Shown: one piece after another, positions 1 through 20,306 of the stretch
How the letters are laid out: each line of letters opens with the position of its first letter
Position numbering within the stretch: the first letter of the stretch is position 1
Virus record (IMG/VR): IMGVR_UViG_2778261641_000008
Strand: one strand, 5' to 3'
Length of the DNA stretch: 28,322 nucleotides
Source of the DNA: a virus
Taxonomy: Duplodnaviria; Heunggongvirae; Uroviricota; Caudoviricetes
Notes under the pieces: generated by a model
What the model saw: the letters and a program-made list of their open reading frames with translations, nothing else
What the model was told of the DNA's origin: nothing
Database searches by the model: none
Made by a program: the position numbers and the translations under genes

Positions 1-992
1 CGAACCAGCCAGACCAGCATCAGGATAATCGCGACTAACAGTATCCACAGCGCGGGACGCGTTGCCATATTTTGCAACGTGTCCATCATCGGTGGAAAAG
101 GATTAAGCAGCGGTTGCATATCACGCGGATCAATCCCTTTAACCCGCCGTTGATAAAGCTGATTAAGAATATCCTCGGCCTGGGCAGAAGAAAGCGATGA
201 TTGCGCAGAAAGGCCATATTTTTGCTGGATATATGCCGATAACGCCGCCAGTTCACTGGCATCTAAAGGTTGTTTTAGCGCCATCTGTAGTGATTCCAGC
301 GTCGGCGTATTTTGCTGGCTTAACGTCTGGCGCGCCTGCAACCAGGTCACCAGATGGTTAAACAGTTTCGCTGGAATTAACTCGCCATCTTTCACCCCGG
401 AAAGTTCCAGCATCGATTGCCAGATCTGTTTGCTGGGTTCCCCCGTTGCCGCCGCAAGTTTGGTCACCAGCTGTTTTAGCGCATTGTGCTCCGCCGGTAA
501 TAAAGGACGGTCGGTCGCCTCGCGCTGCTGTGGTTGCGGAATAACCATCTTCCCTTCCTGCAACAGGGTGAGAATGGTTTTTAATTGCTCCGGTGAGAGC
601 TGATTCAGCGGCGTCTGACCAAAGTTATGACGGATATAATCCGTGACCGCCTGACGATTATTCCCCAGACGTAAATACTCCCCTAATTGCGCTAAAAGCT
701 GGCGGGCAGAATGGCTTTTTTGCGCGGCCAGCAGACGTTGCGCCAGATTATGCTCAGCGGCAGGGAAGTGACGCGAAAGCAGCGGTGAATCTCCCGACAG
801 ACCAATATCGTGCCTGATACCCGCCCACAGTTCTGCTCTTTGTTGTTGCGTCAGTGAGGTCACTTTCGTCATTAAGCTTTCCAGCGAAGTACGTTGCTGA
901 CTGGATAAAGGCTGATTGCCCGCGCCAGACGGCAGGTTATCTCCCTGACCTGGTGGTTGCCCAGGAGGAGGGCCGGAAATAGGTTGTATCAT
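1..992 (-). CDS. flk: Flk-like flagellar regulator with C-terminal membrane anchor; 3' end cut by window edge
   Basis: Minus-strand frame open from the window start to ATG at 992-990, with AAGGA about 8 nt upstream. Translation starts MIQPISGPPPGQPPGQ and ends in a hydrophobic anchor ALWILLVAIILMLVWLV. Recognised from memory, not searched. Confidence 0.55.
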   Translation of the reverse strand, partial: MIQPISGPPPGQPPGQGDNLPSGAGNQPLSSQQRTSLESLMTKVTSLTQQQRAELWAGIRHDIGLSGDSPLLSRHFPAAEHNLAQRLLAAQKSHSARQLLAQLGEYLRLGNNRQAVTDYIRHNFGQTPLNQLSPEQLKTILTLLQEGKMVIPQPQQREATDRPLLPAEHNALKQLVTKLAAATGEPSKQIWQSMLELSGVKDGELIPAKLFNHLVTWLQARQTLSQQNTPTLESLQMALKQPLDASELAALSAYIQQKYGLSAQSSLSSAQAEDILNQLYQRRVKGIDPRDMQPLLNPFPPMMDTLQNMATRPALWILLVAIILMLVWLV

Positions 993-1189
993 TACGTATC
1001 CTTATACCTGAAATCTTCGCAAGTATGCCTGGCCGCGAGATTATGGCACACTTGTCCGGTTAACTCTCGTCTCATACAGGTAACACAAACGTGAAAATCC
1101 TTGTTGATGAAAAAAATGATGATTTAATTTATTGATATAAAAGGATTTATATCAGCACGTGTCCACGTAGTGACCACATTTTCGAGTTA

Positions 1190-1231
1190 CAGATAACACA
1201 AAGCCCGTTTTCACGGGCTTTGTGTTATCTG
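1190..1231. repeat. Perfect inverted repeat, 18-bp arms with 6-nt loop (CAGATAACACAAAGCCCG ttttca CGGGCTTTGTGTTATCTG)
   Basis: Read directly from the sequence. It lies between the flk 5' region and the 3' end of the 1260-2153 gene. No U-tract on either side. Confidence 0.85.
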
Positions 1232-1259
1232 TGATTGTGGCTAAGCCACATGATTTATG

Positions 1260-2153
1260 CTATTTCCAGTTACAAGCAGCTTGAAGTGGTTTTAGCGCGT
1301 TTGACAGGCCGTTTAAATTGAAAGTTGCACTTACAGGACTCTCATTATAAGGAGTTATTTTTGTATACATTTTGTTTGAGTTGGCTAGTTTTCGGATGAA
1401 ATCAATGTCATTACCTTTATAAAAAACAGCCTTTGTATCTGTAGATACTAGCCAGTTTCGCTCAACTGCTTTCTGTTTATCAAGACGATAAAGCATGCTG
1501 GTTTGTTCAAGGCCTAAATATACATCCCAACTAAGAAATACTTCGGTTTTCTTTTCTCGGCAAGCTATAAACAGAGTGGGAGTAACCGCTTCTCCAAATG
1601 GAGTTCTGATATAATCATCACTTTCTAACGATAAAATTACATTTTTCGAATCATCAATTGGCGATGTAGTAATGGATGTGTGCCATTTTCCTACATCTGT
1701 GGCTTTCTCTAATTTTGATTCAGCTTGAACAGCTTTATCCTGTGGGAATAGTTTATCGTAGCAGTTTAGTCTGGCTTCTTTATCATTTTCTGCTCGGCAT
1801 TTAGATATCTCAGAAAGATTTGGTTGCTGAGCCTCTGTTGTTACTGGCTTTTCCGTTTTAGATTTTGAGTTTACAGATGGAGTAAATGTTGGAGAAAAAA
1901 AACGATCATAACAAGATAAACGTCTGTCATCATCTTTCTCATCAGGGCATTGATCTCTGCTTTCGAATTTTTCAGCAACTTTCGTTCGAGTCGGTTGTAT
2001 TGACTTATCGTAACAAGAAAGTCTGTCTTTATTATTTTCTATTGCTCGGCACTGGAGTACTGCATTGAAGTTATTATGTTCAGTTGCTGCGTGAACAGGC
2101 AGTACACTAATTGATATAAATGATGCACCTATAGAAAAAATTATATTTTTCAT
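1260..2153 (-). CDS. Secreted protein with signal peptide and three tandem Cys-containing repeats; unknown function
   Basis: 297-aa ORF. N-terminal signal-like segment MKNIIFSIGASFISISVLPVHA. Motif recurs three times: RLSCYDK, RLSCYDRFF, RLNCYDKLF. AT-rich relative to flanks; immediately downstream of the 2158-2490 gene. Confidence 0.6.
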   Translation of the reverse strand: MKNIIFSIGASFISISVLPVHAATEHNNFNAVLQCRAIENNKDRLSCYDKSIQPTRTKVAEKFESRDQCPDEKDDDRRLSCYDRFFSPTFTPSVNSKSKTEKPVTTEAQQPNLSEISKCRAENDKEARLNCYDKLFPQDKAVQAESKLEKATDVGKWHTSITTSPIDDSKNVILSLESDDYIRTPFGEAVTPTLFIACREKKTEVFLSWDVYLGLEQTSMLYRLDKQKAVERNWLVSTDTKAVFYKGNDIDFIRKLANSNKMYTKITPYNESPVSATFNLNGLSNALKPLQAACNWK

Positions 2154-2157
2154 TTTG

Positions 2158-2490
2158 TTATCCTTTTGGTTTAGTAAGAAATACTAAAATTCCGATAATG
2201 ATATCGCCAATAACCCATAAACTTCCAATGGTAATTAAACCTAAGCCTGTACCAATAACTGCACCGGCTTTTTCGGCATCGGATGTAGCATTATTTATTA
2301 TTTCACTAGTGCCTCCCAGTCCAACTAAAAGCGTATAGATCATAAAAATATTAAATAATATAAATATCCACTTAATGAGCTTTCCAAAAAATGAACGCTT
2401 AAGTTTTTTTATTTGTTTACCGCAAGCAGGGCAATACAATGCTGAATCGCTCACCTCTTTCTGGCATTCAGGACATTTGATTAATGCCAT
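2158..2490 (-). CDS. Small membrane protein with N-terminal zinc ribbon (CPEC-x13-CPAC) and two predicted TM helices
   Basis: 110-aa ORF with strong RBS AAGGAGG upstream of ATG at 2490. Hydrophobic segments IKWIFILFNIFMIYTLLVGL and LITIGSLWVIGDIIIGILVFL. AT-rich. Confidence 0.6.
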   Translation of the reverse strand: MALIKCPECQKEVSDSALYCPACGKQIKKLKRSFFGKLIKWIFILFNIFMIYTLLVGLGGTSEIINNATSDAEKAGAVIGTGLGLITIGSLWVIGDIIIGILVFLTKPKG

Positions 2491-2751
2491 GTAATCCGCC
2501 TCCTTTGGATCAATACGAGTTGATATTTGTTACAAAACATTTTGATTTTATCAGATTTTTTTTTATTGATAAGTGTCAATTGATTAGCTGGTATAGAGTG
2601 AGACATATAGAAGGGCAGATCTGTATCAGTAGTGATGCAAAAATCCCACAGTTTCATGGAATTTTTGCATTTAGAGCCGTGAGATAGGGTGCCTTATCGA
2701 CCTTACCCTGGCAACCGATTGACGGGGGATTACTCCCCCGTCGCGGTTTCC

Positions 2752-2892
2752 TTACTGCTTACACTGTAAGAACGCCGCAAACTCCGCTCCCCAGAAACTC
2801 ATCCGTATTTCGCACAGCGAACCGTGCAACATCCAGATGATGAGGATTACCGTCACGCAGAACGTGATGGCTGTAAGCGATTTTTGCGACAT
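2752..2892 (-). CDS. Hok/Gef family type I toxin (46 aa); absent from the ORF track because it is under 60 aa
   Basis: Hand translation of the minus strand gives MSQKSLTAITFCVTVILIIWMLHGSLCEIRMSFWGAEFAAFLQCKQ, stop TAA at 2754-2752. It has a TM helix followed by the SLCEIR...AAF signature I associate with Hok/Gef peptides. A 7-bp stem-loop at 2723-2740 (CGGGGGA ttac TCCCCCG) sits in the 3' region. Confidence 0.7.
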   Translation of the reverse strand: MSQKSLTAITFCVTVILIIWMLHGSLCEIRMSFWGAEFAAFLQCKQ

Positions 2893-3082
2893 AGCACTTG
2901 CTCCTTTTCCGGAGAGGCGCTAACCTTTCACTTGCTTAGGGTAGACGGTTAGGGCCTCGGTTAAACAAAAGTGTTTTCCGGGGCCTTTCCACATCTGGCC
3001 TTCGGGTATTCCCTCCGACCATCAGCCGAAAGGCACCCGCGCGTAATCTATCGCTTTTTTGTTACTCCGGCAATTCTGCTTG

Positions 3083-3534: not shown

Positions 3535-4557
3535 ATGGGAAGAGATATAACGCTGTACCCTAAAAAAGCAACTAGAAACGAACTTAAAAATTACCTTGAA
3601 AATTTAGGTTTTAAAAGGTGTAAACATTTGTGGGAATGGCCCCAAGGAACGTTGAATTACTCTTGGTTTGATGATACGGACTTCAAATCTACAGATGGAG
3701 TTTCGGCTGATATATATCCTGTTTCAAATGACGAATTACACATATCTGGTAATAAATGGGCATTGCATGTGCGTAATTTATATAGCGCTAGTTGGCATGA
3801 TGTAAAAATGCTTAATGATGTTCTAAAAGGCGCAAGGAGTCTTTTTGGTGGAACACTTATAGGTGATTATGGGAAAAATAGGTACGCTCCTCTATGGAAG
3901 GATTCTAGTAGTCCGATCAGTCGTGGCATTTCTTCAATATTTAATCATGTCCATCATGAGATTTCCGCTGTTAAACATGCCTTACCTGAACCTTCTATTA
4001 AATTAAACCTACCGGAAGATGGCGGTTTATCCGAATACTTTGATTACATGCAATGTATGGATCCCAGTAGAGTTATATATAATGGATTAGTACCTTTTGC
4101 GGTTGCTATGTTTGAATACTTTTTCTCTAGAGCTTTTCAAATACTTATAAAGTACGATCCTTTCGCAATAGCAAAAAGAACATCGTATAAGCAAAAAGTT
4201 GATTTTGACATTCTGCTTGAGATAGAGAAAGGAAATATTTCAATAGAAAGTGTTATTGCAAGAAATTACACTTTTCAAAACTTAACCCACCTAAACAAAG
4301 CATATAAAGAGTGGCTGGATATAGATGTGAGAGCGATTCTTTATAAGAAAAAAAGAATTGGAAAATCAGTTGATTTTCTTGAGAATCGAATTTCTGAAAT
4401 CATACAATATAGACATGGGATAGTTCATCACTTTGAGTTGGATAGGACCTTAAATCGGGATGGATATATTCATATATTAGATGCGATAGAAAAAAGCATA
4501 ATTGAATTTATCCATTACATAGAAGGCAAATACAAATTTAAATTAAATGCGTATTAA
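3535..4557 (+). CDS. Hypothetical AT-rich cargo protein (340 aa) with C-terminal RHGIVH (Rx4H, HEPN-like) motif; candidate abortive-infection or defence protein
   Basis: Single long ORF in a markedly AT-rich island. AGGTGA RBS 7-8 nt before ATG at 3535. Hairpin at 4586-4609 downstream. Not recognisable as any P2 core protein. Motif QYRHGIVHHF near the C-terminus. Confidence 0.6.
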   Translation: MGRDITLYPKKATRNELKNYLENLGFKRCKHLWEWPQGTLNYSWFDDTDFKSTDGVSADIYPVSNDELHISGNKWALHVRNLYSASWHDVKMLNDVLKGARSLFGGTLIGDYGKNRYAPLWKDSSSPISRGISSIFNHVHHEISAVKHALPEPSIKLNLPEDGGLSEYFDYMQCMDPSRVIYNGLVPFAVAMFEYFFSRAFQILIKYDPFAIAKRTSYKQKVDFDILLEIEKGNISIESVIARNYTFQNLTHLNKAYKEWLDIDVRAILYKKKRIGKSVDFLENRISEIIQYRHGIVHHFELDRTLNRDGYIHILDAIEKSIIEFIHYIEGKYKFKLNAY

Positions 4558-4677: not shown

Positions 4678-5787
4678 TCACTCTGTTTCTGCTATCCATT
4701 CCGGGATTTTTGCCTCAAGCTCAAGCTGTGTGGTAAAGCCGCTGTTATCAATGGTGTGCTCGGCTTTCGCAATAATCCAGTCCTGATTATCAATCTCGCT
4801 TTTAAATCCTGTTACCGTGCCATGCATTTCGGGGTAGAGTTCTGCACGTCCACGCACCAGCGTGATGGAAAATAATGCGGCTCCGCGTTGTAGCTGCTGC
4901 CACTTTGCCGCCGCTGCGCGTCTTGCTGCCTGCTCGTTCTGATAAGTCTTGCGTAACACAAACACATTGCCTTCCGCGCCTTCCATATAATCACCTTCAC
5001 GGCTGCTGCTTTTCTCCTTTTTGGGTTTTGGCGGTTTGCGGCGTTTCACGCTGACTTTTTTCTTTTTCCCGTAATTAAGATCAAGCCAGTAAGCGCGTAC
5101 CCCCGTATACGCCTCGCGGTCAGCAATGCGGAACTGATGGCGATCGCCGCTGCTGCGTGTGATGGCGAACGATGGCAACGGCTGGCCCTGTGCGTTCACG
5201 CCACCGCCGGGCATGATGAATAACAGATTACCGCTTTTTACCGTGGTGATTGCGCCCAGCATTTCCGCCATGCGCGTAAGGAAGGACATGTCGCTTTCTT
5301 CAGTCTGGTCGGCGTGGTCGATTTCGATATCCATCAGCATTTCGCTGATTTGCGGTTTCAGGCTGTACCGATGAGCGATGGCGGATACCACACGTTCAAC
5401 GGTCACATCATGCCAGGACGCCTCACGTTTAACATTAAATTCATCCCGAAAATCTGCGCTTCTGGCTGAAACAGTCAGCCTGTCCGGCGGTCCTTCGTGA
5501 GCGATTTCATCAACAATGTAAGTGCCTTTTTCTGTCAGCGGTTCCCCTTTCCAGCCAATGAGAACCGTCAGACGCGCGCCCCGTGGCGGTAGCTGCAACT
5601 GGCCATCGGCATCATCCAGCGTGATGGTGAGCTGGTCCGCCTCAAATCCCCGGTTGTCGGTCAGTGACAGGCTCATCAGGCGTTCTGCCACGCCGGACAG
5701 CGTTTTACCCTCGGCGAGAATATCAAAATCCGGCATTTTCACGGGGTCTGTGCCCTGACTGAGCAATTGCATGGTGGTGTCGGTCAT
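4678..5787 (-). CDS. D: P2 gpD-like tail protein (late control gene D family)
   Basis: ORF track frame 4678-5919. Preferred start is ATG at 5787, preceded by GGGAGGG 5 nt upstream. Protein reads MTDTTMQLLSQGTDPVKMPDFDILAEG, about 369 aa. Confidence 0.85.
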   Translation of the reverse strand: MTDTTMQLLSQGTDPVKMPDFDILAEGKTLSGVAERLMSLSLTDNRGFEADQLTITLDDADGQLQLPPRGARLTVLIGWKGEPLTEKGTYIVDEIAHEGPPDRLTVSARSADFRDEFNVKREASWHDVTVERVVSAIAHRYSLKPQISEMLMDIEIDHADQTEESDMSFLTRMAEMLGAITTVKSGNLLFIMPGGGVNAQGQPLPSFAITRSSGDRHQFRIADREAYTGVRAYWLDLNYGKKKKVSVKRRKPPKPKKEKSSSREGDYMEGAEGNVFVLRKTYQNEQAARRAAAAKWQQLQRGAALFSITLVRGRAELYPEMHGTVTGFKSEIDNQDWIIAKAEHTIDNSGFTTQLELEAKIPEWIAETE

Positions 5788-5944
5788 CTGTTCCCTCCCT
5801 GTGCGGCATGGTCGCATGTGCGTGCGGAGGGGGTTACTGCTTTTTGTTGTCGCCGTGGCGGGAGAATAGCGCAGGGGTGAGATTACGCGCGTGGTGGGTG
5901 ATGATTGTTGCTGAATCATTTAACGGATACAAGGGGCTGAAGCT

Positions 5945-7129
5945 ATGAGTGAAACTCGTTTTCATGGTGCCCGTGTTACGGAAAATACCGACCTGGTAAC
6001 AGCGATTAACGATGTTGATTCCAGCGTTATCGGTATCGTGGCAACGGCGGATGATGCGGACGCGAAGCTGTTCCCGCTGAACAAGCCCACATTGCTGACC
6101 CGCGTCAATGACGTGCTGGGAAAATGCGGAACAACGGGGACGCTTTATCGTGCGCTTAAGGCCATCGCAGACCAGGTGAGCACAAAGGTGATCGTCGTTC
6201 GCGTGGCTGAACACAAAGAAGAAGACGGAAAGACGCAGGATCAACTGGTTATCGGTGGTTCTGAGGATGACGGCAGCTATACGGGGATGTATGCGCTGCT
6301 TGTTGCAGAGCAGGATGAAAGCATCGGATACCGTCCGCGTATTCTGGCCGCGCCGGAGCTGGACACGGAGGCTGTAACAAAATCCCTGTGCGTGATTGCA
6401 GGTAAACTGCGCGCGTTTGTGTATGCCTCATGTCACGGCTGTAACACGATGGCTGAGGCGATTACCTATCGCCAGAAATTCAACGAACGTGAGGTGATGC
6501 TCTTATGGCCGGACTTCATCGCCTACAACCCGAAAAGTGGCAAAAACGAAACGTTCCCCGCGCCTGCCTATGCGTGCGGCCTTCGTGCGTACATTGACCA
6601 TGAGCAGGGGTGGCACAAATCACTGTCCAACGTTCCGGTTAAAAATGTGCTGGGGATGTCGAGGCATGTGTTCTGGTCGTTGCAGGCCGAAGACAGCGAT
6701 GCCAACAGCCTCAACAACAAAGAAATCACGACCATTATTCGTCGCAACGGGTTCCGCTTCTGGGGCAACCGCACACCGGAAACGAACGCCTACATCTTTG
6801 AGGTGTATACCCGAACCGCACAGGTGCTGGCTGATTCAATTGCGGAAGCGCAGTTTGAAACCATCGACAGTCCACTGACGCCTGCGAACGTGAAGGATGT
6901 TATCAGTGCCATCAGGGCAAAACTGGATTCGCTGGTTACTGCCGGGAAACTGATTGGCGCGGAGTGCTGGTATGACGTGGTGGATAACGGCACCACGGAT
7001 TTACGTCAGGGGCGTGTGCGTATTCGCTACAAATATACGCCCGTTCCGCCACTGGAAGACATGGAGCTTTACCAGACGTTTACTGATGAATTCTTTGGTC
7101 CCGCATTTGCGGTGCTGGGAGGTGCCTGA
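5945..7129 (+). CDS. FI: Contractile tail sheath protein (P2 FI)
   Basis: 394 aa; the FPLNKP...GTLY...AIADQ motifs resemble P2 FI. AAGGGG RBS. Stop overlaps the FII start (TGATG). Confidence 0.9.
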   Translation: MSETRFHGARVTENTDLVTAINDVDSSVIGIVATADDADAKLFPLNKPTLLTRVNDVLGKCGTTGTLYRALKAIADQVSTKVIVVRVAEHKEEDGKTQDQLVIGGSEDDGSYTGMYALLVAEQDESIGYRPRILAAPELDTEAVTKSLCVIAGKLRAFVYASCHGCNTMAEAITYRQKFNEREVMLLWPDFIAYNPKSGKNETFPAPAYACGLRAYIDHEQGWHKSLSNVPVKNVLGMSRHVFWSLQAEDSDANSLNNKEITTIIRRNGFRFWGNRTPETNAYIFEVYTRTAQVLADSIAEAQFETIDSPLTPANVKDVISAIRAKLDSLVTAGKLIGAECWYDVVDNGTTDLRQGRVRIRYKYTPVPPLEDMELYQTFTDEFFGPAFAVLGGA

Positions 7130-7641
7130 TGGCTGTACCAAAACATCTTCGCTTTTTTACGTTGTTTGTGGATGGTGAAAACGAAGTGGGTAAAGTGACA
7201 TCCGTCACGCCGCCCAAACTGACGCGCAAAACCGACAGCTATCGTGGTGGTGGCATGATGGGGGCGGTAAGTATTGATCTCGGTCTGGACGACTCCGCGC
7301 TTGATGCGAGTTTTGTTATGGGGGGCGCTGTTCGTGCGCTGTTCCTTAAATATGGCGGCACGATTGACGGCACGCTGCTGCGTTTTGCGGGTGAATACTA
7401 CACCGATGCAGAAAGCGATCTGTATGAAATCGAGATGCGCGGACGTGTGACGGAAATTGATATGGGGGAAGCCAAACAGGGCGAAGCCACATCACACACT
7501 TACGCTGTCAAAAACACCTACTACAAGCTGAGCGTTAACGATCGCCCGCTGTGGGAAATCGACCTGTTGAACCACATCTACCGGAAGGACGGCAAGGACA
7601 TTGTGCCTGACCGTATCCGTTCCGCGCTTGGGCTTGGCTGA
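7129..7641 (+). CDS. FII: Tail tube protein (P2 FII)
   Basis: 170 aa; SVTPPKLTRKTDSYRGGGM...RFAGEY...EIDMGEAKQGE matches my recollection of P2 FII. Confidence 0.9.
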   Translation: MAVPKHLRFFTLFVDGENEVGKVTSVTPPKLTRKTDSYRGGGMMGAVSIDLGLDDSALDASFVMGGAVRALFLKYGGTIDGTLLRFAGEYYTDAESDLYEIEMRGRVTEIDMGEAKQGEATSHTYAVKNTYYKLSVNDRPLWEIDLLNHIYRKDGKDIVPDRIRSALGLG

Positions 7642-7696
7642 TAAGTAATATGCAGGCGGCGCAGTGCGTCGCCTCTGACTGAAAAGGAGACAACTG

Positions 7697-8071
7697 ATGA
7701 AAGACATCGATACTGAAACCCGGAATAACACCGTGGCGGATGATGTGACGGCAGGTGAGGATATGGCTGTCGAACGTGGCGTAAAACTGACCCGACCAAT
7801 TGAGCGTGGTGGCGAAAAAATCACGTATGTGGAGATCACCGGGGCTATTGAGCAGGCTGGATCCCTGCGTGGTCTGTCGCTGTCTGATGTGCTGAATCTG
7901 AAAGCGGATACCATGTTCACGCTGTTGCCTCGCGTGACCTCGCCACGACTGGATGAAGTGATGATTAAAAAAATGTCGTCACGCGATTTTATTCAGTTGT
8001 GCGCTGTGGCTGTAAATTTTATGAGCGAGCCAGACTCTGGCGCGAAGAGCGTGCAGGAGACGGCAGCGTAA
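7697..8071 (+). CDS. E: Tail assembly chaperone (P2 E)
   Basis: 124-aa ORF between tail tube and tape measure, with an overlapping -1 frame ORF downstream. Confidence 0.75.
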   Translation: MKDIDTETRNNTVADDVTAGEDMAVERGVKLTRPIERGGEKITYVEITGAIEQAGSLRGLSLSDVLNLKADTMFTLLPRVTSPRLDEVMIKKMSSRDFIQLCAVAVNFMSEPDSGAKSVQETAA

Positions 8072-8235
8072 TCACCCTGGTGTGCTTTGAGCACATCGAA
8101 GATCTGGTGGCGGATATTGCCGCCATTTTTAACTGGTCGCCCGCCGAAATCTTCATGATGACGCCCGGCGAAGTGGTTAGCTGGCGCGAGCGGGCGGCAC
8201 TTCGCAGCGGGAATGCAGATAATGAAGACTCTTGA
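8017..8235 (+). CDS. E' extension reached by programmed -1 frameshift from E
   Basis: The -1 frame is open from 7969 to the stop at 8233-8235. An in-frame X_XXY_YYZ heptamer A_AAT_TTT lies at 8014-8020. The post-shift reading FYERARLWREE matches the track ORF 7999-8235. Confidence 0.55.
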   Translation, partial: FYERARLWREERAGDGSVITLVCFEHIEDLVADIAAIFNWSPAEIFMMTPGEVVSWRERAALRSGNADNEDS

Positions 8236-11029
8236 TATCCGGGTCGCTTTCAGCGCCGTTGACAGGCTGACCCGGCCTGCCGAAAACGCCCGCCGCCTGA
8301 TGGGGCAGTTTGGTGACTCCATCCAGCGAACGCAGGGGGCGCTCAAAAATCTCGAGCGTCAGGCGCGTTCATTTGAGCGCGCCCGTGACGCTGTCAGTAA
8401 AGCGGATGCGGGCATCGTGAAAGCACGACGCCAGCTTAACGCCCTTAATCAGTTACAACGCACGGGTACAGTGCTCAGCGAAAAACAACAAAAGCTGATG
8501 CAGCAGTTAAGCACCCGGCTTGAACGCCTGAATGAATCGCGCACACGGGAAATTCAAAAAATGCGGGAGCTTGGCGGAGAGCTGAAACGCCACGGCATTT
8601 CCCTGACAGGCAGCGATAACACCATCCAGCAGGCCATCAGACGCACCGAACAGTACAACAACCAGCTTGAACGCGAACGGCAGGCGCTTGCGCGTGTAAC
8701 GCGGGCGCGTGAGCGGTATTCGCGCGCGCAGGAAACAGCGGGAAAACTGAAAACAGGTGGTGCACTGGCAATTGGTGCGGCAGCGGCGGGCGGCTATGCT
8801 GCCGGGCGTTTTTTGCAGCCTGCGATCGGGTTCGGCAAAGAGATGTCCCGCGTTCAGGCACTGACGCGAATCGACAAAAACAGCCCGCAGTTTAAGGCGC
8901 TGCGTGAGCAGGCGTTAAAACTTGGCTCTGAAACACAGTTTACTGCGAGTGATGCCGCCAGTGGGCAGAGCTTTCTGGCAATGGCTGGTTTTACTCCGCA
9001 GGCCATTCAGGCCGCATTGCCCGGTGTTCTTAATATGGCGCTGGCAGGTGGCGTCGAACTCGGCGAGACGGCTGATATAGGCTCCAATATCCTCACACAG
9101 TTCAACCTGACAGCCGATCAAATGGACCGGGTTGGCGATACGCTGACAGCGGCATTCACCCGGACCAATACTGATTTACGCGCGCTGGGCGAAACCATGA
9201 AGTATACCGGTCCGGTTGCCGCAAAACTTGGTATCAGTCTTGAAGAAGCGGCAGCCATGGCCGGGATGCTTGCCAATAATGGTCTTCGCGGAAGCGATGC
9301 TGGTACGGCCATGCGCGCAAGTCTGTCCCGCCTTGCATCACCGCCAAAAGCTGCGGCTGATGCGCTGAAAGAGCTGGGAGTGTCAGTTGCTGACGCCAGA
9401 GGCAAAATGCGCCCGATGGAGGATGTGCTGCTTGATCTCTATAAGGCGACACAAAAATACGGACAGGTGGACCAGGTTTCCTTCTTCAAGGACATCGCCG
9501 GAGAAGAGGCGTTCGTTGGTTTGCAGACGCTTGTTGCGGCGGCTGGTTCAGGAGAGCTGCAAAAACTGACCAGAGAATTGCAGGGGGCAAGGGGAGAGGC
9601 CGATCGCGTCGCAAAAGTAATGGCCGATAATCTTGATGGGGACCTGAAAAATCTCGATAGCGCATGGGAAGGTCTTCGTATTCGCATCAGTGATCTGGTT
9701 GACGGTCCGCTGCGTTCTGTCACGCAGTGGCTCACGCGGGTGCTTGAAAAAAGCACCTCGCTGGCGCAGGCCCATCCGGTACTGACGCGCCAGCTACTGA
9801 TAGCAGGCGGTGCGTTGCTGGCAATGACTGCAACGATTGGCTCGTTGTCGCTGGTTATTGGGGTGCTTTACGGGAAGCTGGCCACCCTGCGTCTTGGTTT
9901 TGACATTCTTACCCGGTCAATGAATGTCGTCAGGGTGTTGCCTGCGCTGTGGGGAATGGTGACGGGTTCCGTTTCTTTGCTGGGAGGCGCTATCGGGGCG
10001 CTGTTCAGTCCGGTTGGTCTTATCGTGGCTGCGCTTGCCGGAGCTGCCGTTCTTATCTGGAAATACTGGGATCCCATCAGGGCATTTTTTGCCGGGGTGT
10101 TCGGCGGGATTATGGAAAGGCTGACCCCGTTGCGTGAAACCTTTGAACGGTTTGGTCCTGTTTTTGACGCAATCGGAAGCGGGATCAGCCAGGTGTTTAA
10201 CTGGTTTAAATCGCTGCTGTCACCGATGGAGTCCAGCAAGGAAACGCTGGATAAATGTACCAGTGCTGGCGAGATATTCGGTAACGTTCTTGGTGGCGCG
10301 CTACAGCTTGTTCTGACGCCTGCAAAAATGTTGCTGGATACGCTGGCGTGGATACTTGAAAAACTCGGTGTGCTTCCGGATGAAGCGGAAAGGGCGAGAA
10401 AGAAAATCGAAGACGCACAGCGTGCGGCCATTCTTCAGGACAAGGTTGCTCTGTTTCAGGGAGACATTGCGAAAATCAATCCGCCGAAGTCTGCGGAAAA
10501 TGGCAATGGCACCGGAGGCGATAAACCCAAAGACAACAAACCGCTCACAGACAGCAATACCGGCACGCTACGCAGACTCAGCAAAATTGCTGATAACACA
10601 GGTAAGCTGGTTGATGAGACAAAAAAACGTATTGGCCCCGGCGATATTGTCTTTAAGAACCTGCCCCGCGCACTTGCTGTTCGTGGGGAGTGGCAGGAGC
10701 GGAAGATTGCGCAGGTCAGTAAGCCTGCTTCCGCAATCAACATCACACCCGTGGTCCCGGCTCTGCTGCCTCCGGCGCTGGTCCCTGTTGTTGCGGCCAG
10801 CTCCCGCCCGGTGGCGGAGGCCATACGATCGCCAGTGGCATCAGTTCCTGCAACTTCCCGTAACCGGGAGCCTGTTGTCTCCGGATTTGGCGGTGAAATT
10901 CATGTTCATCTGCATAACGTTGTTACGCAGAATCCCCGCGAACTGGCGAAACTGGTCGGTGAAATGGTCAGGGCAGAGGTGGAACGGCGTGCTCGTGCCG
11001 GACGTGGCAGTTTTTACGATAAAGATTGA
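8213..11029 (+). CDS. T: Tail tape measure protein (P2 T)
   Basis: 938 aa; coiled-coil N-terminal half, Gly/Ala-rich hydrophobic middle segment, position between E/E' and U. Confidence 0.9.
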   Translation: MQIMKTLDIRVAFSAVDRLTRPAENARRLMGQFGDSIQRTQGALKNLERQARSFERARDAVSKADAGIVKARRQLNALNQLQRTGTVLSEKQQKLMQQLSTRLERLNESRTREIQKMRELGGELKRHGISLTGSDNTIQQAIRRTEQYNNQLERERQALARVTRARERYSRAQETAGKLKTGGALAIGAAAAGGYAAGRFLQPAIGFGKEMSRVQALTRIDKNSPQFKALREQALKLGSETQFTASDAASGQSFLAMAGFTPQAIQAALPGVLNMALAGGVELGETADIGSNILTQFNLTADQMDRVGDTLTAAFTRTNTDLRALGETMKYTGPVAAKLGISLEEAAAMAGMLANNGLRGSDAGTAMRASLSRLASPPKAAADALKELGVSVADARGKMRPMEDVLLDLYKATQKYGQVDQVSFFKDIAGEEAFVGLQTLVAAAGSGELQKLTRELQGARGEADRVAKVMADNLDGDLKNLDSAWEGLRIRISDLVDGPLRSVTQWLTRVLEKSTSLAQAHPVLTRQLLIAGGALLAMTATIGSLSLVIGVLYGKLATLRLGFDILTRSMNVVRVLPALWGMVTGSVSLLGGAIGALFSPVGLIVAALAGAAVLIWKYWDPIRAFFAGVFGGIMERLTPLRETFERFGPVFDAIGSGISQVFNWFKSLLSPMESSKETLDKCTSAGEIFGNVLGGALQLVLTPAKMLLDTLAWILEKLGVLPDEAERARKKIEDAQRAAILQDKVALFQGDIAKINPPKSAENGNGTGGDKPKDNKPLTDSNTGTLRRLSKIADNTGKLVDETKKRIGPGDIVFKNLPRALAVRGEWQERKIAQVSKPASAINITPVVPALLPPALVPVVAASSRPVAEAIRSPVASVPATSRNREPVVSGFGGEIHVHLHNVVTQNPRELAKLVGEMVRAEVERRARAGRGSFYDKD

Positions 11030-11035
11030 GGAGTC

Positions 11036-11530
11036 ATGGCCATGATGATGATCTACGGCATGTTTGTTTTTGAGCTGCGCACATTGCCGCATCAGCAGTT
11101 ACAGCAAAACAAAAGCTGGCGGCATGTGAAAAATGAACGCGTTAACCGTTCAGCAAGCTGGCAGTATATCGGCGCAGGTGATGATCGCATCGTGCTTTCC
11201 GGCGTGCTTTATCCTGAAATTACAGGTGGCGAAGTGTCGCTTTCGTTGCTGACCACACAGGCATATACAGGACGCCCCTGGCCTCTGATTGATGGTGTCG
11301 GGCAGATTTACGGCATGTATGTACTGACTGAAACGAATACGACCCGTTCCGAGTTTGATCGCTACGGTAAGGCGAAAAAGATAGAATTTTCACTGACCCT
11401 TGAACGCTGTGATGAGGATTTGCGGGAGCGTCTGCAATCCTCATCGTTCAGTGATATGCTGTCCGGCTTCAAAGATAAGGTCACATCATCCCTTAACAGC
11501 GCGGCCAGTTCAGTTAAAGGACTGTTCTGA
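11036..11530 (+). CDS. U: Tail protein gpU
   Basis: 164 aa; MAMMMIYGMFVFELRTLPHQ...WRH...GVLYPEITGG..WPL..G resembles P2 gpU. Confidence 0.85.
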   Translation: MAMMMIYGMFVFELRTLPHQQLQQNKSWRHVKNERVNRSASWQYIGAGDDRIVLSGVLYPEITGGEVSLSLLTTQAYTGRPWPLIDGVGQIYGMYVLTETNTTRSEFDRYGKAKKIEFSLTLERCDEDLRERLQSSSFSDMLSGFKDKVTSSLNSAASSVKGLF

Positions 11531-11626
11531 TTTTACATTGCCGCTAATACCCTCATATTGGGTAATGGGCGGCTTGTTGTTATATAATATATCGTAGGTC
11601 CTGATAAAACTGTTGAGGTTTCTACT

Positions 11627-12805
11627 TTATAAAGAATTGCTACTTTCTAATTCTGGGTTTCTGGATCTATTTTTACAACCTAAATCCGAGTGGTAATTCG
11701 GTATATCGTTTGTCAAATCTTGTTTGATAGCATTAATTAAGATCATTATGTCGAATTTATGCATATCGTCGCCCCCTTCAGACCTTAGATGTTCGGATGT
11801 GGTGAGTTGAGTCGCTAATTTGCTGTTTGGCCCCCACACAATATTATTTTCGAATTTTCCTTCATGCATTCTGTTATTATATATACAGTATTGTCTAATG
11901 TTTAATGCACTGGCTAAATGTACAATGGCAGTATCTACAGTTATAACAAAATCAGCATGGCGAACCAATGCAAATGAACATCCGGCATCAGAAAATGGAG
12001 ATAGAGACACATTATCCAATCCATTGTGATTAATCTGTTTTCCCATATTAAAAACTATTGTGTGATATCCCTTAAGGTTATTAAGGTAAGCTAGTACTTT
12101 GTTTATCTGTTCATCAGATAAGGTTCTGCTATTCTGAGAGCCATAAGGGTTAAATATAACTAATTTTTTGTTTTTCTTCCTGAATTCATTTGCAACAATA
12201 TTTGCTGGTTCATATATTTTGTTGTCAAAATTAAGCGCTGCAGCATAATTATTATTTTTTATCTTTAGTAAAGATAAAACTTTTTTCATTCTTTCAGATG
12301 TGTGAATGGAACGATTATCGATTATATTTGTATCAAAAATAGTTACGGCAGGATGATTAAAACAGATAGAGTGTTTAGGTCTAAGTAAATGTAGTGTTTG
12401 CAATCTGGTTATCGCTGTGTTATCAAAATTTGAGAAGTCAACAACAAGATCTACATTCAGTTTTTTTATCTTTGCTTTTAGTTCGTTAAATTTATTTTTC
12501 TCGTAAGATATAAAGGCATCCACGCCAACAATATCAGTAAAGAGGAATGATACTCTTGAAGGTGCTATCACATATACCACCATACCGGATTTTTGAAGTT
12601 GTTTAATAAACCCTGAGGTAACGATGCCGTCACCAATGGCTTGCATGTGCATGAAAATGCACACTGTTTTATAACTATCCGGCTGTAATGATGTTTTCCT
12701 TCTGTATCGCATTTTTAGAAATGCCAGTCTGGCCTTCGTCTTTATCTTTTTTGTTTTAATATTTCGCTGTCTGTTAAGCTGTTTTAATGATGAAATAACA
12801 TTCAT
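11627..12805 (-). CDS. Glycosyltransferase family 9 (LPS heptosyltransferase-like) protein; AT-rich cargo
   Basis: Track ORF is 11627-12865 with a TTG start; ATG candidates at 12835, 12805 and 12712, start unresolved. N-terminal KTVCIFMHMQAIGDGIV and C-terminal FVITVDTAIVHLASALN resemble the WaaC/WaaF-type signatures (SSMGDV and VDTGLSHLAAAL). Confidence 0.65.
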   Translation of the reverse strand: MNVISSLKQLNRQRNIKTKKIKTKARLAFLKMRYRRKTSLQPDSYKTVCIFMHMQAIGDGIVTSGFIKQLQKSGMVVYVIAPSRVSFLFTDIVGVDAFISYEKNKFNELKAKIKKLNVDLVVDFSNFDNTAITRLQTLHLLRPKHSICFNHPAVTIFDTNIIDNRSIHTSERMKKVLSLLKIKNNNYAAALNFDNKIYEPANIVANEFRKKNKKLVIFNPYGSQNSRTLSDEQINKVLAYLNNLKGYHTIVFNMGKQINHNGLDNVSLSPFSDAGCSFALVRHADFVITVDTAIVHLASALNIRQYCIYNNRMHEGKFENNIVWGPNSKLATQLTTSEHLRSEGGDDMHKFDIMILINAIKQDLTNDIPNYHSDLGCKNRSRNPELESSNSL

Positions 12806-12899
12806 AATGGTACCCTGAAATTCCAAATCACACATGTCATCCGAAATGAGCAGGGTACTATACAAAAAACTGGACTACAATGGTTTGAAATGAAAGCCT

Positions 12900-13499
12900 T
12901 TATGCTTGTTTACTCCTTGATTCCACTGGGGAAGCTGGCCACTCAATATCCGGTGCTCTTGATGTATCAACACGGTTCAGCAGCACTCGATACTTCTTCC
13001 AGGCTTCCAGCAACGAGATTTCTTCCTCCGTTGCGATTTCCAGATCTACAGCATCCTGAAGTGGCGCAATATGCTCACTGGCTACCTGCATCAGGCTGTT
13101 TTTTGTTTCTTCTGCCTCCCGGATCCGGAACAGTTTTTCTGCTTCCGTATCCTTCACCCAGGCTGTGCCGTTCCACTTCTGATATTCCCCTCCCGGCGAC
13201 AACCAGGTAACATTTTCCGGTAACGGACCGAGTTCAGAAATAAATAACGCGTCGCCGGAAGCCACGTCATAAACCGTTTTACCACGATGATCTTCAACGA
13301 GATGCCAAGACGCCCCATCACTGTTGAAAACAGCCACGAAGCCAGCTGGAATATCTGGCGGAGCAATATCAGTACTATTTGCAGGCAGACCTGTATGAGG
13401 TGGAATGTATGCATCACCTTCACCAATAAATTCATTGGTTCCGACCAGCAGATTATAAATTTTTATGGTTCGTGGTTGTTCACTCATTCTGAATGCCAT
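12900..13499 (-). CDS. G: Tail fibre assembly protein (P2 G / Tfa family)
   Basis: 199 aa immediately downstream of the tail-fibre fragment; sequence typical of tail-fibre assembly chaperones. Confidence 0.8.
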
Positions 13500-14611
13500 T
13501 ATGCAAGCCTCACAATATAGTTAAATGCGATGTTTTTTACGGTGTTTTCCGCGTTGCCATAAGCGGCAATGGTAATGGTGTGTGTGTGCGAACCAATAGC
13601 GAGCGTATGTGTATGCGCACCTATTGCTACTGTGTGAGTATGAGCTCCTGCGCTTAATACGCGATTACTTGCTGTCTTGCTTGTGTTAGTTGCATGCATT
13701 CCACCACCGGTACCGGGAGTTTCTGCGTATGCTGAAGTATTGTTGTAAGCAAAGTTGTGTGTATGTGCTCCGGTGTTATTTGTGGATTTAGTTCCGTAAT
13801 CAAACGACGATGTGGTTTTCGTCCCCAAATCCGTACTGGATGCGCTGGCGCTGTGGGTGTGCGATTTAATGCCGTCCTGTTCCTGAGACAATACGGCCCG
13901 ACCACTGGCAGGTTTGCCCTTAATCGTCCAGCCACGCATATCAGGGATCACGCCTGACGGATAAGCGACTGCAAGTTTCGGGTAGGCAGATTTGTCAAAA
14001 GTCTGCCCCTGCATCAGGGCATAACCAGACGGAACGGTATCCGATGGCCACGGGATTGGTGCGCCAGGCGGATAAAACTGCTCTGATGGCGTATAGAGTG
14101 AATAAACTGTACCGTCCGTTAACCCTTCCGGCTTATTAGCAGAATATGCTGGTGACGGATGAATCGTTACGCTGGCATTACTGGTATAATCCCATTGAAT
14201 ATTTACACCAGTCGCATAATTTCCGATTGCAACGTAAATATCGTAAGTATCACCAGATGTATTGACCCAGGCAAAATTTGTAAACCCTGCCGATGTGCGC
14301 TGCCATAAAGCACCAGTAATCCCCTTCGGATTACCATTACCTGCACGCAAAACAATTTCAGATATACCTGCCTGTTGAGGTGAACCGACGTTATATCCAG
14401 CGCCACCAATCAACGTAATTGAAACAACAGAACTCGCCTGTGGCATGGTTACCGTTGCTAATTTGAACCAACCAGCACCACCTCTGAATGACATTGTTGT
14501 TGAGTTAAGCGTACCAATATCTTTCGGTGTCAGTGTTATATCCGCTGAAAGCGCCTTACCATTCACCTTACGGGCAGAAGGTAACGGTTTTAAATTTTCG
14601 TGTTGTGGTAC
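13499..14611 (-). pseudogene. H: C-terminal fragment of tail fibre protein (P2 H-like); N-terminal part missing
   Basis: The frame opens at 14611 with no credible start (track start 14566 is GTG). C-terminal GAHTHT repeats ([24 protein letters not shown]). The upstream neighbour is truncated O rather than the baseplate genes. Confidence 0.7.
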
Positions 14612-14958
14612 TCATGCTTAATCGTCCGGATACTGGAATAGATTTTCTTGCCGTCAGCGACAAGCTGCTTCATGCGCTCGGTCGGTTCGATTTCTGCATA
14701 CAGCGCAGTACGTCCGGCCAGCGGGCCTTCCGTAATATCTTCCGTACTCAGCGCGGTGACATCGCCCATTGCGGAAAATTCGCTTGACGGGCATGGCGAG
14801 AGATAGTGCTCAACGTTCACGCGGGCAGCGTAAACATCCGGGTTGAAGTTCTCGGCGGCTTCACGCAGATGTACCGGGCTGATTTCGCGGCCATCAACAG
14901 TTGATCCGGAGACAGCCACGCGAAACTTTTTGCGGAATGTCTTTTTTTCATTAGCCAT
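14590..14958 (-). pseudogene. O: N-terminal fragment of capsid scaffold/protease gpO, about 122 of the roughly 280 aa expected
   Basis: MANEKKTFRKKFRVAVSGSTVDGREISPVHLREAAENFNPDVYAARVNVEHY parallels the P2 gpO N-terminus as I recall it. The ORF ends after KKIYSSI plus 12 unrelated residues, directly beside the tail-fibre fragment. Confidence 0.7.
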
Positions 14959-15112
14959 AGTTTTTGCCCCTCTGACTGGTTCTTCAGTCATGATGGCAAA
15001 GCGTAACAGGCTGATACAAAGGGCTTTTGTTGTAAGAAAACGGCCAGAACAGGGGGTTAAGGAGAACGGTTTCGCGCGCGGGTAATCTTCCTGTAATTAC
15101 TCAGGGGGAGCA

Positions 15113-19030: not shown

Positions 19031-19342
19031 TTACTCAGGAAATAACGCCCGGATATTCCCAGCCATCTGGCTGGTTATCTTAGCCACTGGTGCAGACTGT
19101 GCTTCAAACTTTTTTGAGCTGATTTGTGTCACAGGTAACATCTCATCATCAGCCCATGCGGCCAGTCGGTAAGCCTCTGCCGGATTCGTCTTCAGAAGTG
19201 CCAGCCCGGCCAGAAAAGCCACGCGTTGGCCGCTTTTGCGGGCTTCTGGTGTAAGGCTGTCCAGCCAGGCGCATGCTTCTCCTTCGTTCTTGACGGCAGC
19301 TGGCTTCAGATAGAAACTTATCCGTCTGGTTGGTGTTGTCAT
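19031..19342 (-). CDS. parR: ParR-like ribbon-helix-helix centromere-binding adaptor
   Basis: ATG at 19342 with AAGGAG 6 nt upstream, 5 nt after the parM stop. N-terminus MTTPTRRISFYLKPAAV...RVAFLAGLAL resembles my recollection of plasmid R1 ParR. Confidence 0.65.
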   Translation of the reverse strand: MTTPTRRISFYLKPAAVKNEGEACAWLDSLTPEARKSGQRVAFLAGLALLKTNPAEAYRLAAWADDEMLPVTQISSKKFEAQSAPVAKITSQMAGNIRALFPE

Positions 19343-19346
19343 TGGT

Positions 19347-20306
19347 TTACTCCTTGTCCATTGCGTACAGCCCATTAACCAGAGCAAACTGTGGCACCCC
19401 GTCCGCGATGAAAGTCGCATTAACTCCGCAGGCTTCGCGGATAGCGGGTGCCACAATCTCCGCCCCGCCACCGACAACCATCACCCGCCCGTAACCCGAA
19501 AAACCCGCCAGCGCGCGGATCACGCGTTGTTTCAGTGTTTCTTCCTTTTCACGAATAACCACCATCAGGCTGTCGTAATGCGCGTCATTGTGGATGTGCT
19601 GGCGCAGCCAGGCTTCATCATGGCGATGTTCGATAATGGTATTGGCGATGTGGTGACTGGTACGCATACCGTTAGTGGCCATCACCGACAGTACGGCATC
19701 GGCCATCAGGGAAACGCCTACGTGTGGATCGCAAAACACCTGGCTGATACCTGCCAGTTGTCCCTGAACCTTTGCCACATCCAGCGTGGTTCCGCCTAAA
19801 TCCACAATCAGCAGGGATTCAAACGGACTCATGTCAGCCAGTGCTTTAAAGCCAGCCGGAATGGATTCAGGCATAACCCGTACGTTACGGATAGTGAATG
19901 CTTCGCCGTTCTGGTACTCCACCGGGCGCATGACGTTCGCTTTTTTGCGGTTGATGTTGGCCATGTCCGGCTGTGCGTTTGTGTCGAAATATTCGCTCAG
20001 TGGCAGGGTGACAACCACATCCACTTCCTGTGGTGTGATGCCTGATTTGACCAGCGCGTGATGAATGGCAATGACATTCACATCGCTGTACTGGTATTGC
20101 GTGTCGGTCGTCTGGACAAAGCGATCGCTGACCGGATCAAAACCATAGCGCACGCCATCAAGCATGTAGTTCGCGGGCTGCGTGCCACCGAACGGCGCAG
20201 ACCATTCCGACTTGAAGCTGTTCGGGCTGATGGCGTTGCGGCGTTCGCCGTTCTCAGTCCATGCCAGCTTGATGTTGGTGGAGCCGTCATCGATACAAAT
20301 TTTCAT
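19347..20306 (-). CDS. parM: ParM/StbA actin-like segregation ATPase
   Basis: 319 aa with IDDGSTNIKL, ISPNSFK, YSDVNVIAIHHAL, DLGGTTLD, VVGGGAE and LVNGLY, the characteristic ParM motifs in the right order. Confidence 0.85.
   Translation of the reverse strand: MKICIDDGSTNIKLAWTENGERRNAISPNSFKSEWSAPFGGTQPANYMLDGVRYGFDPVSDRFVQTTDTQYQYSDVNVIAIHHALVKSGITPQEVDVVVTLPLSEYFDTNAQPDMANINRKKANVMRPVEYQNGEAFTIRNVRVMPESIPAGFKALADMSPFESLLIVDLGGTTLDVAKVQGQLAGISQVFCDPHVGVSLMADAVLSVMATNGMRTSHHIANTIIEHRHDEAWLRQHIHNDAHYDSLMVVIREKEETLKQRVIRALAGFSGYGRVMVVGGGAEIVAPAIREACGVNATFIADGVPQFALVNGLYAMDKE

Follow-up and report, generated by a model that had tools for sequence, protein, structure and literature searches.

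Seroconverting modules such as gtrABC of P22 and the Shigella Sf phages, the O-acetylases, and iap/wzy-beta of D3 are dispensable prophage cargo that modifies the lipopolysaccharide (LPS) of the host and is thought to alter the phage's own receptor. Known seroconversion targets the O-antigen, and the enzymes mostly work at the periplasmic face via bactoprenol-linked sugars. In P2-like phages, the locus downstream of the tail-fibre-assembly gene G carries fun(Z) and three PD-T4/PD-lambda systems, and this Z/fun locus has been described as the second defence-enriched hotspot and as a site where receptor-binding proteins are swapped (PMC9519451; 10.1101/2024.10.15.618418). Moreover, glycosyltransferases in the tail-fibre region of P2-like xenorhabdicins have been proposed to provide self-resistance via LPS modification, a proposal made without a biochemical test (PMC13280938). 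The present study concerns a gene in a 28,322-nucleotide stretch of DNA (hereafter the window) from the IMG/VR virus record IMGVR_UViG_2778261641_000008 (Caudoviricetes), which lies on the minus strand directly behind the tail-fibre and tail-fibre-assembly genes of a P2-type prophage and encodes a divergent member of glycosyltransferase family 9 (GT9). We lean towards reading its product as a WaaU-like enzyme of the GT-B fold, captured from an LPS or lipooligosaccharide (LOS) core locus as single-gene cargo, which would alter the core of its carrier.

Like the seroconverting modules, the GT9 gene would be dispensable prophage cargo acting on LPS, its proposed role resembles theirs, and its Providencia homologues are placed as gtr is, at the prophage end beside the integrase. 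It differs from the Gtr modules in encoding a single cytoplasmic GT-B enzyme of the core-assembly family, and neither gtrA (flippase) nor gtrB (bactoprenol glucosyltransferase) nor gtrC is among its neighbours in the window. It also differs from the Aah/TibC (BAHT) autotransporter heptosyltransferases, since no autotransporter gene lies near it. The xenorhabdicin loci likewise have a glycosyltransferase beside the fibre genes of a P2-type contractile tail; their enzymes are described as a glycosyltransferase and a mannosyltransferase of Xenorhabdus and are set beside the window protein by description only (PMC13280938). By analogy, a prophage enzyme acting at the level of the core would be a variation on a known theme. 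As with fun(Z) and the other hotspot cargo of P2, the GT9 gene is dispensable, variable cargo immediately behind G. However, fun(Z) causes abortive infection and runs opposite to G, flanked by a terminator and the F promoter, whereas the window gene shares the strand of G, points towards the 3' end of the tail gene U, shows no sequence relation to fun(Z) and was not matched by PADLOC. No GT9 or LPS-core enzyme is mentioned as cargo of a P2-type prophage in PMC9519451, 10.1101/2024.10.15.618418 or Rousset 2022, supplements included, and the main text of a 2026 Nucleic Acids Research paper on P2/P4 hotspots mentions neither a glycosyltransferase nor LPS. This agrees with a preliminary description of the window, made from its letters and open reading frames (ORFs), which knew of no such gene in P2-type phages.

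The region 11531-12899 contains a single gene on the minus strand. The mechanical ORF runs from 11627 to 12865 on that strand (TTG start, 412 amino acids (aa)), and the ATG at 12805 is the preferred start, giving a coding sequence (CDS) of 11627-12805 with 392 aa plus the stop codon (1179 nt). Identical copies carry the same CDS in RefSeq under WP_001100987.1, labelled 'glycosyltransferase family 9 protein'. The profile search against Pfam PF01075 (Glyco_transf_9) returned 26.9 bits against a gathering cut-off of 22 (E 3.7e-6) over residues 206-312. Since searching PDB sequences with the family profile yielded marginal matches only (E ~0.07 to WaaC), a fold search was needed. The AlphaFold2 model, built on 34 relatives, had a predicted local distance difference test score (pLDDT) of 90.1 and a predicted template-modelling score (pTM) of 0.86, and in the Foldseek search against the PDB nine of the first 11 matches belonged to GT9, with 3tov on top (E 5.5e-14). 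The GT9 matches comprised 3tov, WaaC (6dfe, 2h1h, 2h1f, 2gt1) and WaaF (1psw) at E 5e-14 to 7e-11 with TM-scores of ~0.6-0.7, and other GT-B families followed at E 6e-7 or weaker.

The two signature regions that the preliminary description had read at the N- and C-terminal sides, CIFMHMQAIGDGIV (residues 49-62) and VDTAIVHLASAL (residues 290-301), are both present. The residues G58, D59, N219, P220, R227, D291, T292 and H296 are invariant in the alignment of 34 relatives. In a MAFFT alignment, G58-D59 correspond to G12-D13 of WaaC and R227 to K192, while D291/T292/H296 correspond to D261/T262/H266, the latter also in the hidden Markov model (HMM) alignment to the WaaC chains 6dfe and 2gt1; the GD motif aligned in MAFFT with those of WaaC, WaaF, WaaQ and WaaU. 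WaaC D13 is the proposed catalytic base, and the other aligned residues are those proposed to bind the nucleotide sugar. The catalytic residues are unchanged across relatives down to 38% identity. Because these WaaC-equivalent residues are invariant, the enzyme looks catalytically competent, and profile, fold and motifs together support the original assignment to GT9, pointing to a genuine but divergent glycosyltransferase of this family.

The C-terminal extension of roughly 80 aa reported in the preliminary description did not hold up, given that residues 313-365 are folded, conserved in the family and match the ordinary C-terminal part of WaaF, WaaQ and WaaU. The true tail comprises residues 371-392 only, is disordered (pLDDT below 50) and is missing from most homologues, which end ~20-27 residues sooner. 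The more unusual feature, which the preliminary description did not note, is at the other end, where residues 2-33 form a helix in the model that is conserved and strongly basic, with N11, R12, N15, K19 and K22 at least 90% conserved in the family alignment. This helix is present in WaaU, whereas WaaC, WaaF and WaaQ are without it, and it is probably a peripheral membrane or LPS-binding element. The protein is a soluble or peripheral GT-B enzyme in whose sequence no hydrophobic segment is evident, and the basic N-terminal helix is the only such element in the model.

Among the four GT9 enzymes of E. coli K-12, the window protein appears specifically WaaU-like, as the family profile scored WaaU at 118.4 bits (E 1e-37), compared with 23.4 for WaaQ, 15.1 for WaaC and 9.3 for WaaF. 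BLASTP aligned it with WaaU at 23% identity over 334 aa (E 3e-17), beginning at query residue 24 and WaaU residue 16, so that the alignment takes in the N-terminal extension. WaaU (formerly RfaK) is the putative ADP-heptose:LPS heptosyltransferase IV and the closest named enzyme. Like the window protein, WaaU belongs to GT9, has a basic N-terminal extension ahead of the GD motif and carries the VDTAxVHxAxA signature; moreover, waaU of K-12 ends its waaQ operon, and P0009, a 55% identical homologue of the window protein, likewise ends one. In contrast, the window protein is only 23% identical to WaaU, which does not qualify it as an orthologue, is borne by a prophage behind tail-fibre genes instead of in the waa locus, and has an added disordered tail of ~22 aa. 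No NCBIfam equivalog covers WaaU or the window protein, and both yield just weak HepI and RfaQ matches. WaaC, WaaF and WaaQ (structures 2h1h, 6dfe, 1psw) share with the window protein the GT-B fold (TM-score 0.6-0.7), the GD motif, the K/R position and DTxxxH; they differ in their marginal sequence likeness to the family profile (9-23 bits), in the lack of the basic N-terminal helix and in being essential for the inner core, whereas the window gene is accessory. WaaK, the N-acetylglucosamine transferase of R2 and Salmonella cores, was considered as a further WaaU homologue, in which case the donor could have been either heptose or N-acetylglucosamine, and was rejected, since WaaK of CFSAN061772 showed no similarity to WaaU or to the family profile; as WaaK proved unrelated, the sole named relative is a heptosyltransferase. 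In K-12, WaaU places HepIV on the third outer-core glucose, and it is to this heptose that the O-antigen is attached (PMC13293308). An exhaustive profile search of a library of 1.84 billion proteins retrieved ~118 representative clusters with E<=1e-30, a number that rises to 748 with E<=1e-10. The WaaU-like group is a modest subfamily.

Close relatives of the window protein formed 34 clusters of 38-98% identity in a collection of 5.8 billion proteins, with Providencia predominating. Those of 45-58% identity were found in two settings, namely an LPS core locus or a prophage behind tail-fibre/assembly genes. P0009 is the final gene of a waa operon in the order WaaL, WaaQ, GT4, Kdo-kinase family, GT4, GT8, GT8, P0009, followed by WaaA, CoaD, MutM, rpmG and rpmB, and the WaaQ of this locus scored 525 bits against a cut-off of 467. 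Copies of Gilliamella, Orbus and Schmidhempelia (33-43%) lie among ORFs read as GT8/GT2 glycosyltransferases, often beside a paralogue, and the ORFs around a Vibrio relative (26%) were read as CoaD, WaaA and WaaF, the neighbour labels in both cases coming from N-terminal motifs and not from profile scans. Citrobacter-type copies (47% identity; L006 5971-7089, L087 8001-9101) are single genes flanked by asmA and galF at the head of the O-antigen cluster, which is a third kind of location for the family. In nearly all hosts examined the family gene has a GC content of 26-33%, which resembles that native to the Orbaceae loci; the Citrobacter-type L087 has 41%.

On the prophage side, P. stuartii has a prophage with an E217/Pam3-type baseplate at whose end the GT9 copy lies behind a fibre and an assembly gene; the assembly protein preceding this copy is 44% identical to that of the window. 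The copies of P. alcalifaciens and Providencia sp. PROV039 lie directly behind the fibre gene, with an integrase gene ~1 kb downstream in PROV039. A P. rettgeri copy follows the fibre and assembly genes of a prophage with a Mu-type baseplate and is itself followed by GT2, DinI and the integrase, and one further copy lies near DinI and SocA. This recurrent linkage of the GT9 gene to tail-fibre modules, which besides the E. coli prophages takes in at least three further kinds in Providencia, is notable. An orphan copy of P. rettgeri lies between yfhL and tadA with no phage genes (L095, L096 7275-9535). The same chromosomal site beside yfhL is used in P. rettgeri and in E. coli L6-21 (L090 19690-23175), whose copy lies inside a composite prophage remnant; the shared site suggests a common integration hotspot with the gene kept after prophage decay. 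In the P. rettgeri prophage with the Mu-type baseplate (L085 8001-10118), the GT2 gene paired with the GT9 homologue is convergent with it (weak NCBIfam PRK10073 match), and the pair looks like a two-enzyme surface-modification module at the prophage end.

Taken with these homologues, modification of the LPS core is the best-supported function of the window protein. The gene would have been captured from a bacterial LPS or LOS core-biosynthesis locus and placed behind a tail-fibre module. Its product would work on the cytoplasmic side of the inner membrane, where the basic N-terminal helix probably anchors it, and would extend the outer core by one sugar before the nascent lipid A-core is exported. 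Judging from the family, this sugar would most likely be heptose, donated by adenosine diphosphate heptose (ADP-heptose), and a single gene would suffice because every enterobacterial host already makes this precursor. The core of the carrier would then differ from that specified by its waa locus, so that the receptor could be masked or changed for core-binding phages and tailocins, possibly including relatives of the phage itself. Receptor masking of this kind is plausible, since P2-type fibres, like many other phages, use the core; the attachment of O-antigen could be affected too, because O-antigen is ligated to what WaaU adds. The donor, the acceptor, the timing of expression and any consequence for phage adsorption are what we infer here. 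A change of the LPS core is backed by the homologues in true LPS-core loci, while a block of adsorption would be a step further.

The features of the gene and of its immediate surroundings are as follows.

11627-12805, minus strand: CDS of the putative WaaU-like GT9 glycosyltransferase, 392 aa (ORF, RefSeq, Pfam PF01075, AlphaFold2, Foldseek, WaaU match)
12707-12802, minus strand: predicted basic N-terminal helix, residues 2-33 (LNRQRNIKTKKIK...) (model, alignments)
12629-12634, minus strand: invariant G58-D59 (34-sequence alignment; MAFFT alignment with the K-12 enzymes)
12125-12151, minus strand: residues 219-227, NPYGSQNSR, start of the C-terminal Rossmann domain (alignments)
11903-11938, minus strand: residues 290-301, VDTAIVHLASAL, the GT9 nucleotide-sugar binding signature (HMM alignment, invariant columns, MAFFT)
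11630-11695, minus strand: disordered C-terminal tail, residues 371-392 (pLDDT below 50; relatives mostly shorter)
12806-12899, minus strand: 94-bp spacer (promoter and terminator prediction on the coding strand)
12900-13499, minus strand: tail-fibre-assembly gene, equivalent of P2 G, the upstream neighbour (Pfam Caudo_TAP, E 8.9e-44)
13499-14566, minus strand: truncated tail-fibre gene H', C-terminal 355 aa (Pfam Collar and Phage_fiber)
11036-11530, plus strand: tail gene U, last of the FI-U operon, converging on the 3' end of the GT9 gene (Pfam Phage_P2_GpU, E 5.5e-39)

The gene stands out from these surroundings by its composition, with a GC content of 33.1% compared with 47.8% for the assembly gene, 49.3% for U and 49.6% for the window, as expected from its early characterization as AT-rich. 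The tail-fibre-assembly gene named as its neighbour is indeed present on the same strand (Caudo_TAP match), its stop codon lying 94 bp upstream of the GT9 start codon. P2 itself has G first, then a terminator, fun(Z) in the opposite orientation, the F promoter and FI ... U, D. In the window, the GT9 gene lies directly downstream of G on the same strand and has the 3' end of U as its other neighbour; the FI-FII-E-T-U operon (4678-11530) has the reverse of its orientation in P2, running divergently from D and convergently with G. The position first described as Z/fun-equivalent is therefore right as to the cargo slot immediately after G, but the gene shares the orientation of G and has U, instead of FI, on its other side. 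The same holds for homologues at this junction in other P2-like prophages of E. coli, which occupy the slot after G and face U, not FI: in all 15 IMG/VR E. coli contigs H, G and GT9 are followed by U, T ... FI, which run the opposite way, and U converges on the GT9 gene in the E. coli copies inspected, U being a pseudogene in L6-21.

The convergent FI-U order also occurs in UTI89, CT265, O157:H7 and AF14 (L097-L100), and tail genes of the inverted-operon type are present in 1405 of the 5426 complete E. coli genomes. A private inversion crippling the window prophage was considered and rejected, in view of the same order in these four and of a full-length D, whose ORF aligns with P2 gpD from residue 15 onward at 49% identity (RefSeq annotates just 267 aa). 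Inverted repeats marking the site of an insertion or inversion were sought, and only short matches of chance quality were obtained. The slot between U and G is a variable cargo site, and it proved to hold an invertase/fibre cassette, an acetyltransferase or GT9: UTI89 and AF14 carry a DNA invertase with an alternative fibre tip and assembly protein, and CT265 and O157:H7 carry a hexapeptide-repeat (LbH) acetyltransferase that is found in 184 genomes. The other cargo of the slot is thus also related to receptors or surface glycans. The acetyltransferase (L098 10020-10565; L099 4988-5560) is annotated as 'transferase' or 'serine O-acetyltransferase', occurs in 57 places on plasmids, and may be another surface-glycan-modifying cargo gene.

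Several observations weigh against a WaaU-like enzyme that alters the core and shields the carrier. The Pfam match is confined to the C-terminal half of the protein and the NCBIfam heptosyltransferase models score far under their cut-offs, so that sequence alone would make it a 'divergent GT9'. The nearest named enzyme, WaaU, is distant (23% identity) and is itself 'putative' in the K-12 record. PADLOC gave no hit for the gene, PHROGs gave only phrog_36326, a family without annotated function, and one prophage copy lies behind a portal gene rather than a fibre gene. In addition, no sigma-70 promoter or terminator was predicted on the coding strand of the spacer between the assembly gene and the GT9 gene, and promoter-like sites upstream of the Providencia copies were no more frequent than in shuffled sequence. 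Superinfection exclusion requires expression in the lysogen, and such expression is not evident because the gene is co-oriented with G with no promoter or terminator between them; most of its transcription may come from the late fibre operon, which would be hard to square with protection of a lysogen. Consensus promoter scans performed no better than on shuffled sequence, and the E. coli and Providencia spacers share no conserved promoter or upstream element.

The nature of the fibre bears on the same question. P2 itself uses the K-12 LPS core as its receptor (PMC8594841), as the preliminary description had it. The assembly gene and fibre-tip DNA of the window (12900-13700), however, match 5006 of the 5426 E. 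coli genomes at 90-95% identity, the matching class being Stf/Tfa of cryptic lambdoid prophages. Because the fibre tip and assembly protein belong to this ubiquitous class, the receptor of P2 cannot simply be assumed, and the receptor of an Stf/Tfa fibre tip need not be the LPS core, a further point against masking of the core. All GT9 carriers have one class of fibre tip and assembly protein. A coupling of fibre type to GT9 cargo was nevertheless rejected, given that the class is nearly universal in E. coli and is also found with acetyltransferase cargo. It may be noted separately that the window P2-type phage has a fibre tip in common with lambdoid side tail fibres and would find recombination partners in nearly every host.

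DNA of the gene was detected in 49 of the 5426 complete E. coli genomes (~1%), always on the chromosome, and megablast against deposited phage genomes returned no match to it. The carriers are human clinical, mouse, bovine Shiga toxin-producing, enterotoxigenic and environmental strains, including carbapenem-resistant clinical strains. In strain 94-3024 (O104:H21) the gene lies within an apparently complete P2-type prophage. Strain 165 and the window hold deleted prophage derivatives in which the GT9 gene is intact. In the window (13499-14991), residues 349-703 of H are separated by 24 bp from what is left of the capsid scaffold protein O (its first 133 aa), and H' matches the corresponding residues of the full-length H in strain 165 (L001) with 100% identity. 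The prophage of the window is defective, with baseplate, lysis and head genes deleted. The deletion of strain 165 differs, joining partial I to partial N. In strain L6-21, the GT9 gene is intact, whereas U and the assembly gene beside it are pseudogenes. Overall, the ORF is intact in 48 of the 49 carrier genomes, and the ratio of nonsynonymous to synonymous substitution rates (dN/dS) between E. coli alleles is 0.09-0.29. As this ratio and the intact copies in decayed prophages show, purifying selection keeps the gene even where it has not kept the phage.

Persistence of this sort is also what would be expected if the enzyme altered the core to the benefit of the host, in a way unrelated to phage receptors and with the prophage serving as vehicle, for instance by changing or blocking the O-antigen ligation site, or by altering resistance to serum, bile or antimicrobial peptides or the colonisation of the gut. 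The gene remains intact in decayed prophages and survives as an orphan, as a host-beneficial gene should, the product of WaaU is the O-antigen attachment site of K-12, and the Citrobacter homologues lie beside O-antigen clusters. Such a benefit, however, leaves unexplained why the gene stands right behind the receptor-binding module in four prophage kinds and why fibre-switching cassettes occupy the same slot. A purely host-directed role is the strongest of the alternatives, and we regard it as rather unlikely. Modification of the core by a prophage-borne WaaU-like enzyme is common to this alternative and to the reading that we prefer, in which the change would also bear on receptors.

The location of the gene would suit an enzyme that glycosylates the tail fibre or another virion protein in the manner of Aah/TibC, expressed late with the fibre: it follows H and G in the same orientation after 94 bp, no terminator or promoter is predicted in that interval, and the fibre contains Ser/Thr-rich repeats. 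Protein-heptosylating enzymes of GT9 type do exist (modelled by NCBIfam TIGR04414 for Aah/TibC), and the BFVD holds a protein from an uncultured phage annotated as Aah/TibC. On the other hand, no Aah/TibC (TIGR04414) match was among the NCBIfam hits of the window protein at E<=0.01, its nearest relatives lie in waa/LOS loci without fibre genes, the gene is kept where the fibre or assembly gene is lost or a pseudogene, and its basic N-terminal helix is common to WaaU, an LPS enzyme. Glycosylation of the virion is accordingly improbable.

We give about the same low credence to a neutral passenger, that is, a horizontally acquired low-GC gene that hitch-hikes with the fibre module without a function there and may be silent in E. 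coli, possibly silenced by H-NS. The GC content of 33% in a context of ~50%, the lack of a predicted promoter and the rarity of the gene (49 of the ~1405 genomes with this P2-like tail-gene type) are in its favour, but it is hard to reconcile with a dN/dS of 0.09-0.29 across E. coli alleles, with an ORF kept whole in 48 of 49 genomes in spite of the decay of phage genes beside it, and with catalytic residues that are invariant in relatives down to 38% identity. Lastly, intracellular anti-phage defence, for instance through glycosylation of DNA or proteins of the phage or through depletion of a sugar nucleotide, is suggested by the recognised defence-enriched hotspot downstream of G, yet is very hard to credit for a lone gene without sensor or effector partner, without a PADLOC match, and with specific similarity to WaaU and a 55% identical homologue (P0009) inside a core-LPS operon.

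Extending the preferred reading beyond the window, the WaaU-like GT9 enzymes may tentatively be regarded as a recurrent, unrecognised class of prophage conversion that acts on the LPS core and not on the O-antigen, capping the outer core against the cognate phage, related phages or tailocins and being kept after prophage decay. On the same speculative footing, they could be single-gene modules that draw on the ADP-heptose of the host and are exchanged, with the tail-fibre and assembly module or immediately behind it, among unrelated myovirus prophages (P2-, E217/Pam3- and Mu-type) of E. coli and Providencia. Which phages, tailocins and immune factors a strain succumbs to is decided by prophage genes of this kind, which remodel its surface. 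If capping of the core were true, a single gene would change the receptor of many core-binding phages, including P2 and T-even types, and the site of O-antigen ligation would possibly be changed as well. It would bear on host range in phage therapy and on the question of why cargo slots beside receptor-binding genes are hotspots, and LPS core typing, which is confined to the waa locus, would miss a modification encoded by a prophage.

Further genes of interest were observed elsewhere in the window. An ORF of 340 aa on the plus strand (3535-4557, GC 32-36%) lies between ogr and D, at the third P2 hotspot of the iLund4u preprint; it gave a sub-threshold RiboL-PSP-HEPN match (22.5 vs 28.4 bits) and no PADLOC hit, and is regarded as a candidate defence gene. 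At the prophage edge, two low-GC ORFs on the minus strand (1260-2490) encode a VasI/TagO-like protein (Pfam VasI, E 2.6e-25) and a zinc-ribbon protein, and the same pair adjoins hok/gef and ogr in strain 94-3024; the two may be cargo of the phage or host DNA at its flank. In addition, a ParM-like and StbB/Plasmid_stab_B partition pair lies on the minus strand (19031-20306) between the replication gene A and the portal gene Q, at the old/tin hotspot; about a quarter of P2-like phages carry a plasmid-type partition system (PMC9122126).

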